From: Trypanosoma brucei
Lineage: Eukaryota
DNA: 64,000 nt
Assembly: GCA_000002445.1 (NCBI GenBank)
Contig: CH464491.1
Location: 3,456,001-3,520,000, forward strand
Direction: 5' to 3'
Positions 54,340 to 60,272 of the stretch are shown in pieces. The notes beneath the pieces are model-generated. The model did no database searches. It was given only the letters and a program-made list of their open reading frames with translations, and was not told where the DNA came from. Within the stretch, counting starts at the first letter, position 1, and the number at the start of each line of letters is the position of its first letter. The translations under genes and the position numbers were made by a program.

Positions 54340-55655
54340 GAACCGTTGACTTGTCTTTGCCTGCCGCCCTCAGATACAGGACCAACATCGCATCAATAAA
54401 AAAAAACAACAAACAAAAGGACCAAGTGAAGAGGGGACACGCAAAAAAAGAAACAGTTTAGCGATGATGTTGAGGGCGGAGAATACCCGCACTCATAACG
54501 GGAATAATAGATAGCATAACAGTCACATAGGCAAAAACACCTCACAATTGCTGAGCCCACTTCATAAAATATGAGAAACAGAAAGCAAAGAAAAGTTAAG
54601 CAGTATGATGAGATTGATGTGGGTGAAGCCTATTGAAAAGAGAGAATTCGTTAAACTGCCCAGAAATACAAAACATCAATTGCGTGTGAAAGCAAGACAA
54701 CCGTTCATTAACTGACTTTAACTCTTTTGCATCGCGCTGAGACCAGCGTGCACCTTCACGGTGGTTACCCACCTTTTGCGTGTTTTGGGGCAATCAATTC
54801 CATCTCTTTTATAGTGGGGTATCCCTGAGTCCTCCTTGACCAAGACGGGCGGTGATAAGGCCAAACGCCCCTCTCCGCTGCTTGGCATAGCGAGAGCATT
54901 CCTCCTGCTCTTTGAGATCGGTTTCCCCCTTTTTCTCTCCCGAAGTCAGAGAGGAAAATGGGTCTCACTGAAAACGATAAGCAACTACCGTTTAGAGTGG
55001 GAATGTGGCTGTGGCACCGCCCTTCCCCCCCAATTTGTGCAACATCCCCCGAGTCGTTGGCATAAGGCTCCATGAAATGTTCCCAAGCGAGGTTCCAAAT
55101 GCCAGTTGTGCTGGAATTAGCCTTACAAATGCCCCCGACACGATGCAGCAGGACCGGCCTCGTAGTAAAATGACTGCTTGCCGTGCTTCACCCAATCCCT
55201 CGTCACTTATCCCATAGTACCAGTGGCACACCCGGTGCTTATATGTGTAGTATTGCTCCACGAAACATGAAGATAATGAAGAAGCACAATCAACCAACCT
55301 TGATCAGTAGATGTTGCACCCACCAATCGCCAGGACTGCTGTGATGACAGCGCCAGCGATATTTTGATAGCTTCGAACAAAGAAACTACTAAGGGATCGA
55401 GACCAAAAGACAATAAAAAGGCACAAAGGGAGCTGCACTCGGGGCACGAGGATAAACTGTTACCGACGGCCATTAACGAGGGTTGGTTGAAGTCACAGCT
55501 AAAAGGCAGAGTGATTTGCGCCGGAATATGTGTCAGTCGGCACGCCCCTAACAAACTCCGTCGGTAGCCGTTCGTATGCTCAGGGAAATATAGCTCTGTT
55601 TGTGGACCAATTAGTTATACAAGCCGACGGGAAAGGGGACGGGGAAGCAGCCATG

Positions 55656-56294
55656 TTAGTATGCGAACGGGTCAACTTGTTTCGCATACCGCATCTCCTG
55701 TTCAAGGTGTTCAGTTTCTTCTTCTGTCCACTCGTTCTCCAGCTGAAGATATGTGCGCAACCTTGCAGCTCCCTCCATAATGGAAGGTGCCTCCTTTGCA
55801 ATTTCATTCACACGCTCTGCTACATAGGCACCGAGAAGCTCCCGCAGTTCCACAACGCACAAGAAGCACGCACACTCAAAGAGCGGCATAAGTATCTCAC
55901 GCCGTTCAGCACCGCGGACAAAATCCAGATTCCACTCCGGAACAAAGTCTCTAAGGGACCCTGTGAGGGGCCTACGTGCGTCAATAACGAATCTGCTGCT
56001 CTTTTCAAGGTAATCGGCAACGGCGCGCAACACTTCTGTAGAGAAACCAAGTTCGATCTCTGGCATCTCTGTGCATCCACTTTCATCTAACTCAGCGAGC
56101 CTTTGCAGAAGTCCGATATGATTCCATGCAGAAGCGGCCGGAATCGAAACGGTCTCACCATTGGGCGACACAAGTGTCACATCGCAAGCAGCCATTGGAA
56201 AAGCCACCCCCGCGACTTTACCGTTTCTTTCCTTTTCCTTGCTTCTACAAAGTCGTGCTTGACGGTGGCATCCATAAAAGAAAAGAGGTGGCAC
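55656..56294 (-). CDS. Skp1-like protein (SCF ubiquitin-ligase adaptor family)
   Basis: The N-terminal BTB/POZ-like start VTLVSPNGETVSIPAASAWNHIGLLQRLAEL parallels Skp1 [29 protein letters not shown]. The C-terminal dimerisation helices end in LQLENEWTEEE (Skp1 RKENQWCEE). Confidence 0.6.
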   Translation of the reverse strand: MPPLFFYGCHRQARLCRSKEKERNGKVAGVAFPMAACDVTLVSPNGETVSIPAASAWNHIGLLQRLAELDESGCTEMPEIELGFSTEVLRAVADYLEKSSRFVIDARRPLTGSLRDFVPEWNLDFVRGAERREILMPLFECACFLCVVELRELLGAYVAERVNEIAKEAPSIMEGAARLRTYLQLENEWTEEETEHLEQEMRYAKQVDPFAY

Positions 56295-57812
56295 ACATAT
56301 TTATTACCTCAGTTGTAGCCCCATTATCAACTCCCAAGAAATCTCTTCACAATTGATACCGACAACAAGGGATAAAGCGATCGATAACTGCTACCCGGGT
56401 AGTTTTTGTTCCCGTCGCTAATGTAGCTGAAATTGCGCACCGGCGAACGAGTGTCATTAAACACACACACAAACCAGTGTAAATATATCCCAATCATGTG
56501 CCCCTCTGCGACGCATCCATAGAATGGCTTTCAGACGCCGCGGGGTTTGTTTTTTCTCGGTGTCCATAAGGAAGAAGTCTGGCAGAGGCTTCAGAAACAT
56601 GTGAGGAATAAAAAGTAATTAAAATAAGACGCAAGGCACGGTGATTAAGGTTTTAGTTTGTGTACACTTGCATCTGAAGACAGTATCTTCCTCTGAGTAA
56701 CAGCCCCTTGATTTTCCACCCACCCATCTGTCCTTACTTCTCTCCATCCCTTTGCCTGTGCACACACTTATCCCAGCGTAGGTAAAATATACAAACGAAC
56801 ATATATATATATATATATATATATATGCTTGTGGGTGTACTTGCGTGTACGACACTGCCCATCCAGCTTCGGTTTCATTCAATTACGTCCCCTTCCTCCT
56901 CGAACCGTGGCTCAACAACCCACCTTTGGCCGTTCTGTCCCCACTTATCACAAGAAAATCGACCCCCATCCGGCGTCCCCTGCCCTTCGTCACTTTAGTT
57001 ATGCCTACGAGAGCAAGAAAGCGAAGATAGTGGCCCAAACGAAGCGCGAAAAAAACAACATGAAAACAGGAAAGGTCTAGTTGCAGCACAAACGTATTAT
57101 ATTAGCCAATGGAAAAGAGAATACCACAACATGGGGTCCGAGCACGCTTAACCAAGTGAATCAACGTGACCAGCCAGATTGTGGTGGCAACGACAACGGC
57201 AGGGGGGGGGGAGGAGGGGAGGAAGAGGATAACACCAACATAATGTGACGGAGCCAAATTGCATTGGTCACCGCTTTTTCTTTGCGTGTTTCTTATATGA
57301 AATATGATAGGGGTGTTGCGCCTGCCTGGCTCTTCACCCAAGCAAATAAGAGGTAGCCGCCTTCTCTTCGTCAGGGAAAAGGTGGAGCCACGCGCTCCCT
57401 TTTCCCCATCTGAGCTCTGACAAGAGTCGGTAAGGTAGCAACCTAGAAGTGAGTCACATAATAAACAGAGAAACACCGATACCGATGTTTTACAAACTTT
57501 CCTCCATCAACCTCTTTGACACTCATTCACTCTTAATTACACTGAACACACGACCATGACGCCCTTTTCACCCCAAACCACTTGTTTCGCCCAACGTAAT
57601 CTCCTTTTTTTAACTTTCAAAAGTCTCCCTTAGCCCTTTTCCATCCACTCTATTTGCAGTGCCGAGGAAGAATGAAACACATGCCTTCCTACCGCAGTTC
57701 AAAACCTCCCTAATCAACGAGCGACTGCCTCTTTCACCATCTGTCTGCCACACCCTTCCCCCCACCTCAATTTTGTTCCTTCTCTTCAACTAATTTCATT
57801 TTACTCACCTCT

Positions 57813-60272
57813 CTATTCTTCTTCATTTACAGGCCACTCATTTTCCAGCTTTAAGCAGTCCATTTCCTTGCGTGACCAGTCATTTTGCACTTGGAAGCAT
57901 CTGCGAACTAACGCCGCCGCCTCAAAATGGTCTCGGGCCCCATAGCTCGCTCTCACAATGAAGTCAGCACACCACGCTGCACAGAGGCTCCGCAGTGATG
58001 GGACTTGGAGCACTTCTGCCGCGCGCATGACGCGCAGCAACAGAGCAACGCGCTCCGCAGCGGGGGGCTCTACTAGAAGCACTCTGGAAATTCCAGAAAC
58101 CTTGAGGAACGGAGTGGGGTACGTATAACTCATATTTGGTGAATGCTCAACTATTTCCATCGCACGTGACACCTGCTCCTCCGTCTGACCAAGTATGTCG
58201 CGGTAGATGAAATTCCGCTCCCAGGGAGTCAAGAGTGCCACTAGAGGTGCAGTGAGAGGTTCAGGCGCGAGTGTGGGAAGGAGCTGCTCCTGGCGACTGT
58301 TCTCGTAGGGGTGTTGTTGATGGATCGTGGCGAAGTGCCGGAGGTACACGGCACAGTATCGCACGGCATCGGTTGATGGAGTTCGGTAGGGCCGCGACGC
58401 ACGCTCATCTGCGCGGGGACCACGTGCGGAATGTATTTTGCGCGTCTCCGAGGTAGTCGATACTTCAAGCGACGGAGCACCGTCTAAAGGTGCAGACAAG
58501 TCCGCTGGAATGCAAGTATTGCTTGGGCGTAGGGTACTGCTGCTGGCTGACTTCCCCAGTGAAGATTTGTGTGAGGAGTGAAATGGTATTGTCTGACTAA
58601 TCTCGAGGTTGCTACTCGCCCCGCTTCGCCTCGATTCCGTCTTTCCCGCTGCTTCCCACTCACCGGCTATCTCATTTGAATCACAAAACCAGTTCTGCAA
58701 TTTGATGACGATTTCCTTGTCAGTGATGTGCATGCATTGCCGCATCGGGCGGCCCTCGACTTCTCCATTGGCACCTTCATCATCGCCGTCATCGCCTAAA
58801 GCACTACTATTGGGTTGCTGCTTCCGGGTCTGGGAAACACTATCCGCCCTCATGCTACTCATAAGTCCACGAGGACTTAGTGACCTTTCACCTGAGAAAC
58901 GACTAGAACCCTCTATGGGAGATGACACGTCCTTACCTTTGCTTGAATGCTGGCACAGTGGCCGCGAAGTGGTCTCTAACTGCAATGTCTCCTCAATTGT
59001 GGGAGATGCACAGTCACCGCTGGGGATTGTGGAGTCGTCTTCGTCCCCGATCATGCATGGGGTGCGTTGATGGTAACTCCCGGGGGACACAAGCCCCTCG
59101 TTTGTCTGACTGTTTGGTGTGAAGAAAGGCATGACCGATCCCGTTCCTGACGCTACGAAAACCTCCTGCGTAAGCCCCTCTTCTGCCTCGTCTGTTCTTG
59201 GCGACACGACAGCAGCGGCAACGGGGCTACATTTATTAGCCGTTACCAGCTCCTCGTCCTTTGACATCCTGGAGCCGCACACCTCTGAGGGACTTGATTC
59301 CACATTGGAGGTTTTGCCATCACGTTCAAGTGTTTCGGGTGTGACCTCCGCCGATAGGGAGGGGGGGTCCTTATTATCTTCAGCACCACGGTCGCTAGTC
59401 TGTAACTCATCATCATCTGAACCAAGCGTGATGGCGTGCGCGGCGGTATTGGTGCTCGGTGACACTTCGCGTGATTTGGTTGACGATCGTTTTTGTGACA
59501 GCTCATCCTTGCAGCCGCCTTCTTCACCCCCCATTCCTGCCTGTATTTCCTCTTCCTCCCCACTCCCCCTACTTTCATCATCATCCAAGGTGCTGGGCGT
59601 GGCGCTATCATCTCCACTGGTTCCCCCCTTATCTCCCCTAAGTGGCACATGATGTTCTAATGGCGTGAAACCACCACTGTTGCCAGGCACCGTCTTGTCT
59701 CCACTGGCGTGAAATTTCTCCTGACGATCGCCTTCCAGCCCTACCTCATGTCCGCGAGGTGTCGTTCCCTTTGCTTCTGATTCGGCTTTTCCTCCGTGCG
59801 TGCACACCGTTGGAAGAGAAAACGTAACAGGTGACGGTGAAGGAGAGTCGTTATCGGCTTCATCGTCGTCAAGAACACTCGCTGTGCCATCTGTATCGTC
59901 AGAGTTTCTCGATGGACTACCCTGTTCCCTACCGTAGCACGCCCGCTCAAACCCGTTAACTTTTCTACCTCTCAGTGCTGATTTGGACCCTAAAGACTGT
60001 TCGCACACGTCGTTGATTGAACCCACATTAAGACTCCTCATGCCGCTTCGATGGCCGTCGTAATCTTCGTCACCAATTCGGTCGGGGGTCCGCTCGGAGT
60101 CAGAGTCGCTGCATACGTACGTGTCGCCGTCTATTGCTGTCCCCGGTGACGCGAAGCCGTACATTTCTTCCCAACTGTCCAACACACGCCGCACCATTCC
60201 CGAGAGCTGCGCGGCTTCCTCTGGTACCGCGATGCGCGCACCATCCTGCGTCTGCAAGAAAATTAGAGGCAT
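57813..60272 (-). CDS. Skp1-like protein with a ~600-aa low-complexity insertion between the POZ-like N-terminus and the Skp1 C-terminal domain
   Basis: The N-terminus reads MPLIFLQTQDGARIAVPEEAAQLSGMVRRVL (Skp1 start). The C-terminus reads ...LCAAWCADFIVRASYGARDHFEAAALVRRCFQVQNDWSRKEMDCLKLENEWPVNEEE (Skp1 helices plus ENEW terminus). The middle is Ser/Asp/Gly/Glu-rich and apparently disordered. Confidence 0.55.
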   Translation of the reverse strand: MPLIFLQTQDGARIAVPEEAAQLSGMVRRVLDSWEEMYGFASPGTAIDGDTYVCSDSDSERTPDRIGDEDYDGHRSGMRSLNVGSINDVCEQSLGSKSALRGRKVNGFERACYGREQGSPSRNSDDTDGTASVLDDDEADNDSPSPSPVTFSLPTVCTHGGKAESEAKGTTPRGHEVGLEGDRQEKFHASGDKTVPGNSGGFTPLEHHVPLRGDKGGTSGDDSATPSTLDDDESRGSGEEEEIQAGMGGEEGGCKDELSQKRSSTKSREVSPSTNTAAHAITLGSDDDELQTSDRGAEDNKDPPSLSAEVTPETLERDGKTSNVESSPSEVCGSRMSKDEELVTANKCSPVAAAVVSPRTDEAEEGLTQEVFVASGTGSVMPFFTPNSQTNEGLVSPGSYHQRTPCMIGDEDDSTIPSGDCASPTIEETLQLETTSRPLCQHSSKGKDVSSPIEGSSRFSGERSLSPRGLMSSMRADSVSQTRKQQPNSSALGDDGDDEGANGEVEGRPMRQCMHITDKEIVIKLQNWFCDSNEIAGEWEAAGKTESRRSGASSNLEISQTIPFHSSHKSSLGKSASSSTLRPSNTCIPADLSAPLDGAPSLEVSTTSETRKIHSARGPRADERASRPYRTPSTDAVRYCAVYLRHFATIHQQHPYENSRQEQLLPTLAPEPLTAPLVALLTPWERNFIYRDILGQTEEQVSRAMEIVEHSPNMSYTYPTPFLKVSGISRVLLVEPPAAERVALLLRVMRAAEVLQVPSLRSLCAAWCADFIVRASYGARDHFEAAALVRRCFQVQNDWSRKEMDCLKLENEWPVNEEE

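Follow-up and report, generated by a model that had tools for sequence, protein, structure and literature searches.

In trypanosomatids, the repertoire of cullins and Skp1 adaptors is expanded and specific to the lineage. For Trypanosoma brucei, two recent surveys count five Skp1-type proteins, four of which co-purify with cullins. Skp1.3 (Tb927.11.13330) was published as one of the kinetoplastid Skp1 paralogues (PMC11732084), and the partners that co-purify with it are the lineage-specific cullin TbCul-G, leucine-rich repeat (LRR) proteins and PP1 phosphatases (PMC12816148). SkpZ (Tb927.10.11610) binds a deubiquitinase, not a cullin, in the TbUsp7-TbTpr86 (TUSK) complex. Here we describe a window of 64,000 nucleotides of T. 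brucei DNA (GCA_000002445.1, contig CH464491.1, positions 3,456,001 to 3,520,000), to which all nucleotide positions below refer unless another sequence is named. The gene next to Skp1.3 in this window, Tb927.11.13340, is annotated as 'hypothetical protein, conserved' and encodes a protein of 819 amino acids (aa). We regard this protein as very probably a highly derived member of the Skp1 superfamily, with a predicted fold assembled from segments that are separated by hundreds of disordered residues. Neither of the dedicated Skp1 surveys (PMC11732084, PMC12816148) includes it among the Skp proteins, and no main-text mention of it was found in the literature searched.

The relationship to Skp1 is apparent from family profiles. 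A profile of four Skp1.3 family sequences aligns with Skp1 chains of known structure along their whole length (E 8e-6), and hhalign connects a five-sequence profile of the long family, to which the 819-aa protein belongs, with the Skp1.3 family at 96.5% probability (E 7e-10). In this alignment, positions 625-813 of the long family are paired with 44-170 of Skp1.3, and an additional segment of some 44 aa has no counterpart. A joint profile of insert-deleted long proteins and their short relatives also covers Skp1 from one end to the other (E 2.4e-14). Significant homology to bona fide Skp1 proteins is thus found transitively and by profiles. When 12 insert-deleted sequences of the long family were compared on their own with the Protein Data Bank (PDB), Skp1 accounted for 29 of 29 matches, which cover the N-terminus (residues 1-32 against SKP1 1-32) and, separately, helices H5-H8. 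Based on the sequences, Tb927.11.13340 and Skp1.3 are each other's closest paralogues within the named trypanosomatid genomes. A scan of bacterial and archaeal genome contigs gave no match, as expected.

Several results weigh against the Skp1 assignment. Pfam searches with the single T. brucei proteins (hmmscan) gave no significant Skp1_POZ or Skp1 match for either of them. The best score of the 819-aa protein is to Skp1_POZ (PF03931) over residues 3-32, at 12.4 bits (E 0.19) against a cut-off of 21.9, and removal of the insert brings it to no more than 14 bits, under the gathering threshold; PF01466 is not matched by this protein, and Skp1.3 has no Pfam match at all. The long family alone reaches Skp1 with a best E-value of no more than 0.003 in significance and Foldseek E-values for the structural model are weak (0.13-1), so that the assignment depends on profiles that bridge the families and on a structure that is predicted, not solved. 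An earlier note on this DNA, made from the sequence alone, had proposed that both proteins are Skp1-like and had named the lack of a significant Skp1_POZ or Skp1 profile match as the outcome that speaks against it. Taken literally, the single-sequence Pfam result is that outcome, but the test is too insensitive for these two proteins, because 19 of 32 family members, the T. brucei protein not being one of them, do match PF01466 individually (E <= 0.1; best 4e-8), and the family profiles bear the proposal out. Searches of the PDB with phmmer likewise returned nothing for the single 819-aa protein and a non-significant match to Arabidopsis ASK1 for Skp1.3 (E 0.04). A profile of the whole 819-aa alignment finds nothing there because the insert swamps the profile.

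The missing Pfam match and the weak Foldseek values, together with a poor first AlphaFold2 run (five sequences, mean pLDDT (predicted local distance difference test) 36, unusable for the fold), could also be read as signs of a protein outside the Skp1 superfamily, that is, a BTB/POZ or helical protein resembling Skp1 by chance or convergence, or of two genes wrongly joined in the annotation or assembly. We consider this explanation extremely improbable and already largely refuted. The 819-codon reading frame is unbroken and single in 17 species and therefore not a product of chance, and the protein was detected in two whole-cell proteomes (7 and 9 peptides), with peptides and phosphosites falling inside the insert.

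To return to the Skp1 assignment, a second AlphaFold2 model of the full-length protein, based on an alignment of 37 sequences, shows where the fold is located. Expressed as means of 10-residue blocks, pLDDT is 93-97 for residues 1-40, 84-90 for residues 511-530 and 72-98, mostly above 90, for residues 631-815, and it falls below 50 for nearly all residues between these segments. The modelled N-terminal part consists of beta1 (3-7), beta2 (13-16), H1/H2 (18-38) and a hairpin (514-516/520-524), followed in the C-terminal part by H3 (634-653), H4 (683-693), extra helices (698-732), H5 (739-754), H6 (758-778), H7 (782-793) and H8 (801-812). The model thus contains the BTB/POZ core of Skp1 (beta1, beta2, H1, H2, beta3, H3-H5) as well as H6-H8, the F-box-binding site and the hallmark that distinguishes Skp1 from plain BTB proteins and Elongin C. 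The Skp1 fold is predicted to be built from the discontinuous segments 1-39, 513-526, 630-694 and 739-813 (Table 1); the N- and C-terminal pieces are thus predicted to reassemble into one fold, a point that the earlier note had raised for checking. The most likely source of strand beta3 in the BTB sheet is the hairpin; its conserved form is ITxxEIVIxLQ in Trypanosoma and IRITSSAIVFDL in Leishmaniinae.

Table 1. Features of Tb927.11.13340 and Skp1.3, with positions in the window.
Feature	Position	Strand	Basis
Skp1.3 (Tb927.11.13330), 179-aa coding sequence and stop; compact, without large insert	55656..56195	-	exact match to XP_829390.1
GTG-initiated 33-codon extension, outside the annotated protein	56196..56294	-	reading frame compared with annotation
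Tb927.11.13340, split Skp1-like protein, 819-aa coding sequence and stop	57813..60272	-	exact match; mass spectrometry in two proteomes
Residues 1-39: beta1, beta2, H1-H2 (MPLIFLQTQDGARIAVPEEAAQLSGMVRRVLDSW...)	60156..60272	-	pLDDT 93-97; aligns with human SKP1 1-34; weak Skp1_POZ
Insert 1, residues 40-512: disordered, Ser/Gly/Asp/Glu-rich, at the H2-beta3 loop	58737..60155	-	pLDDT mostly <50
Island 1, residues 58-70: DSERTPDRIGDED	60063..60101	-	orthologue alignment
Island 2, residues 124-138: SDDTDGTASVLDDDE	59859..59903	-	orthologue alignment
Island 3, residues 222-233: DSATPSTLDDDE	59574..59609	-	orthologue alignment
Island 4, residues 385-413: TPNSQTNEGLVSPGSYHQRTPCMIGDEDD	59034..59120	-	HQRTP core at least 95% identical in 17 orthologues
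Beta-hairpin, residues 513-526 (CMHITDKEIVIKLQ)	58695..58736	-	strands 514-516 and 520-524; pLDDT 90 (511-520) and 84 (521-530)
Insert 2, residues 527-629: disordered, Ser-rich, between beta3 and H3, holds S550	58386..58694	-	block-mean pLDDT 36-59, mostly low
Residues 630-694: H3 (DAVRYCAVYLRHF), linker, H4 region (PEPLTAPLVALLTPWERNF)	58191..58385	-	hhalign to Skp1.3 44-94; pLDDT 72-97
Insert 3, residues 695-738: structured, helical, between H4 and H5	58059..58190	-	pLDDT 90-97; constant length
Residues 739-813: H5-H8, F-box-binding half of Skp1, ENEW end	57834..58058	-	SKP1 H5-H8 alignment; pLDDT 84-98

Helices H5-H8 are the best-conserved part of the protein, with 55-81% identity between T. 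brucei and the other trypanosomatid genera compared. The tetrapeptide ENEW, which the earlier note took as a shared terminal motif, is present in both proteins, but at non-equivalent positions: in the 819-aa protein (residues 810-813) it aligns with ENQW of SKP1 helix H8, whereas in Skp1.3 it aligns with SKP1 KNDF at the H7-H8 junction and EMRY occupies the ENQW position. The 'NY' pair in H5 of human SKP1, which contacts CUL1, is replaced by 'EV' in the 819-aa protein and by 'CF' in Skp1.3. As Skp1.3 is itself a cullin binder, nothing about cullin binding can be read from this position.

The two genes share further features, namely PxPL...WExxF at H4, AW/AY-xA in H6 and NDW/NEW at the H7-H8 junction. 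Skp1.3, by contrast, has no inserts, and its H8 and C-terminus read EMRYAKQVDPFAY, compared with ENEWPVNEEE in the 819-aa protein. Compared with canonical Skp1 proteins (human SKP1, yeast Skp1 and Arabidopsis ASK1), sequence identity is 15-20%, and the 819-aa protein carries 473 aa in the H2-beta3 loop plus inserts of 103 and 44 aa. The H2-beta3 loop is roughly 10 aa long in human SKP1 and 30 aa in yeast Skp1. In contrast to the canonical proteins, the 819-aa protein lies below the Pfam thresholds and its binding of cullins and F-box proteins is putative. Short proteins of the ENEWP type from environmental protist assemblies (P0030-P0036) stand closest to it in profile score (E 1e-26 to 1e-18) as well as in a neighbour-joining tree, and share with it the C-terminal ENEWPxxEE and an AWC motif; these are 189-278 aa long and lack inserts 1-3. 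SkpZ is likewise a kinetoplastid-specific divergent Skp1 paralogue, but it belongs to a different clade, is not detected by the long-family profile at E <= 1e-3 and has no giant insert.

The disordered insert amounts to about 580 residues, of which 473 aa (40-512) and 103 aa (527-629) flank the hairpin. Its composition (S 14%, G 11%, D 9.5%, E 9%; net charge -45) agrees with the low-complexity stretch of some 600 aa described in the earlier note, but it is not one block: it is divided around the hairpin, is accompanied by the structured 44-aa insert and contains conserved islands. Insert 1 occupies the position of the short acidic loop of SKP1. Among 17 orthologues its length varies from 398 to 588 aa, and for the six that were compared its identity to the T. 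brucei sequence is 11-34%. Insert 2 ranges from 38 to 110 aa in the orthologues, and across inserts 1 and 2 the genera compared are only 6-34% identical to T. brucei. Insert 3 is always 44-45 aa long and is found only in the long trypanosomatid family, being missing from the short relatives and from SKP1. The Leishmaniinae-like orthologues P0021-P0025, P0027 and P0028 carry an additional low-complexity linker of 82-129 aa between H3 and H4, rich in His, Ser and Ala, at the site of the second disordered loop of human SKP1. Three different loops of the fold are therefore expanded in the long family. Two relatives of the Skp1.3 clade from environmental assemblies, P0010 (L004:148-765) and P0044, also have an acidic or Gly-rich insert of 30-50 aa at the H2-beta3 loop, which suggests, from the sequences at hand, that this loop is a recurrent hot spot of expansion. 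To our knowledge, no other Skp1 has about 580 disordered residues with conserved short motifs threaded through the loops of its BTB core, and the architecture of Tb927.11.13340 appears unusual. Several reading frames of 135-177 aa overlap the insert-coding region (58609-59652, both strands) on the opposite strand or in other frames; these are most likely by-products of biased composition, not genes.

Within the inserts, short islands are conserved in all 17 trypanosomatid orthologues. SPxSxHQRTPCM (396-407) stands out most clearly; next come TPSxL (225-229) and the motif of the hairpin. The pattern [ST][PA]xx[ILMV]x?[DE]3 is common to four islands, in the copies TPDRIGDED (62-70), TASVLDDDE (130-138), TPSTLDDDE (225-233) and TPCMIGDED (404-412). 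Examined by eye, neither SUMO-interaction, FHA, Cdc4/Fbw7 and beta-TrCP degron motifs nor USP7-MATH, SPOP, PP1 RVxF and LIR motifs fit the islands consistently, and no motif class is therefore assigned to them. Three residues of the inserts are phosphorylated in vivo: S55 and S271 in insert 1 (PMC11408851 supplement) and S550 in insert 2 (PMC6907760, Table S4). S550 is among 917 cell-cycle-regulated phosphosites, with log2 values relative to early G1 of 0, 0.66, -2.04, -1.59, -0.60 and -0.21 and a minimum in S phase (PMC6907760). The protein itself is among 443 cell-cycle-regulated proteins, with a 1.7-fold peak in late G2/M. Its level is unchanged on SkpZ knock-down.

Tb927.11.13340 has a conserved counterpart in every trypanosomatid examined. 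When the profile of the C-terminal domain was used for an exhaustive HMMER search, it retrieved 16 long proteins of 714-1054 aa that carry the domain at the extreme C-terminus, those sampled coming from Trypanosoma, Leptomonas and Phytomonas, together with about 19 short relatives without inserts (155-278 aa) from environmental assemblies and Bodo saltans. An earlier search with a C-terminal profile had found a T. cruzi fragment only, and it was the exhaustive representative search that revealed the family. In a neighbour-joining tree, which is rough and without bootstrap support, the long family is sister to the short ENEWP-type proteins and Skp1.3 groups with a Bodo-like EMxY type, both apart from human SKP1. 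In T. cruzi the long gene lies on the strand of Skp1.3, immediately upstream of it, and consecutive locus tags place the two side by side in T. congolense, T. grayi and T. b. equiperdum as well. The 202-aa short ENEWP-type protein P0034 is encoded on a kinetoplastid-like metagenome scaffold (L007:9001-10542), directly followed by a second Skp1-like gene of 291 aa that hhalign relates to the Skp1.3 profile with 85% probability. Since this scaffold carries a Skp1-like pair, the tandem arrangement probably predates trypanosomatids; the expansion of the inserts, judged likewise from sequence comparison, is probably a trypanosomatid innovation. As a separate observation, a 529-aa gene lies between Skp1.3 and a 727-aa gene downstream in T. 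cruzi (L001:10867-12456), and the matching place in the T. brucei window (54340-55655) is about 1.3 kb long without a comparable open reading frame (ORF).

That the two sister paralogues are kept side by side in several species, and that a tandem pair is also found on the metagenome scaffold, could mean that Tb927.11.13340 works with Skp1.3, as its heterodimer partner or as a regulator or decoy of the TbCul-G/Skp1.3 ligase. This is very unlikely. The TbCul-G enrichment list has Skp1.3 but not Tb927.11.13340, and the strong difference at H8 and the C-terminus (ENEWP against EMRYAKQVDP) suggests that the two proteins have different partners. Moreover, a functional link between neighbouring genes is not the rule in trypanosomatid polycistrons.

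What the protein does may be considered in the light of its predicted fold. We propose that Tb927.11.13340 could be a Skp1-type adaptor, in which the conserved H5-H8 groove, to judge from its sequence, would grip an F-box-like helical motif in one receptor protein or several; that H5-H8 is the most conserved region is an indirect pointer to the binding of F-box-type receptors. The BTB face would tether the receptor to a scaffold, most plausibly a kinetoplastid cullin without a known adaptor. TbCul-B and TbCul-C are the cullins to which no adaptor is assigned, and TbCul-B (Tb927.10.7490), which is essential and resisted tagging, is the only cullin never purified. The long insert would serve as a flexible, phosphorylation-regulated docking arm, and its T-P/S-P plus acidic islands may recruit further partners or regulate the complex through the cell cycle. 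A split Skp1 of this kind may bridge additional partners, as had been suggested. The full mechanism, with the adaptor placed on a cullin, is tentative; we see it as possible without calling it probable. A bolder version, in which the protein is a cell-cycle-controlled hub whose islands are phospho-dependent docking sites directly recruiting substrates or regulators, so that adaptor and receptor or regulator are combined in one polypeptide, possibly the missing adaptor of TbCul-B, is in our view unlikely.

A number of observations weigh against an adaptor role on a cullin. Tb927.11.13340 is in none of the significant-enrichment tables of TbCul-A, C, D, E, F and G, and the sole table of the cullin supplement that contains it is the whole-proteome table. 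Documented partners exist for Skp1.3 and none for the 819-aa protein, and because SkpZ binds a deubiquitinase, cullin binding is not to be assumed. The islands inspected by eye match no known class of short motif. The available part of the supplement text of PMC9464253 has no entry for an RNA interference cell-cycle phenotype of the gene, and that of PMC9981465 none for a TrypTag localisation. Taken together with the precedent that SkpZ offers for a role outside cullin ligases, showing that kinetoplastid Skp1 paralogues can leave cullins, the absence from the six pull-downs is what would be expected if Tb927.11.13340 were a Skp1-fold subunit of a cullin-free complex with the insert as its main interaction platform. 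Yeast Skp1 in CBF3 or RAVE provides further precedents for Skp1 complexes without a cullin. In addition, the BTB face, the side that canonical Skp1 uses for cullin contact in the 1LDK structure, could be changed by the structured insert that lies between H4 and H5. We nevertheless consider a cullin-free complex somewhat unlikely: four of the five characterised paralogues bind cullins, the H5-H8 groove shows the conservation seen in Skp1 proteins that bind F-boxes and, as TbCul-B was never purified, absence from the six cullin tables is not decisive. A kinetochore or CBF3-like role, raised in the earlier note, is supported by none of our results, and no evidence for it was found.

The remaining details concern the locus itself. 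The earlier note correctly identified two adjacent ORFs on the same strand, and the 819-aa ORF, which starts with ATG, lies exactly where it had been placed. As both genes are on the minus strand, the 819-aa gene is however upstream of Skp1.3 in transcription, not downstream as had been claimed. The mechanically called short ORF (55656-56294) encodes 212 aa from a GTG, whereas the true coding sequence of Skp1.3 starts at the ATG at 56195, and the extension in front of it is an artefact of mechanical ORF calling. Both proteins match entries from chromosome 11 of T. brucei brucei TREU927 exactly, the short one being named 'SKP1 component POZ domain-containing protein' in UniRef and the long one corresponding to XP_829391.1 / Q382K2. 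A published supplement places Tb927.11.13340 at Tb927_11_v5.1:3572851-3575310(-) with 819 aa, by which the adjoining short gene is Tb927.11.13330. In the TbCul-G sheet of the PMC12816148 supplement, the name column for Tb927.11.13330 reads 'Tb927.4.3000', the identifier of an F-box protein, instead of Skp1.3, which looks like a labelling slip. Elsewhere in the window, positions 1035-2609 encode a histidine acid phosphatase consistent with MBAP1 (Tb927.11.13130), and the segment 42001-44000, between genes of the same polycistron, has the lowest G+C content (0.36) and the strongest negative GC skew (-0.29).

Tb927.11.13340 would thus be an unrecognised sixth Skp1-fold protein of T. brucei and is probably an overlooked member of the parasite's ubiquitin-ligase adaptor family, one whose abundance and S550 phosphorylation both vary through the cell cycle. 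Its case indicates that single-sequence Pfam screens miss real family members in these divergent genomes. For trypanosome ubiquitin biology it is a concrete candidate for pull-down, and for the evolution of the BTB fold it offers a natural test of how far the BTB/Skp1 fold tolerates the expansion of its loops.

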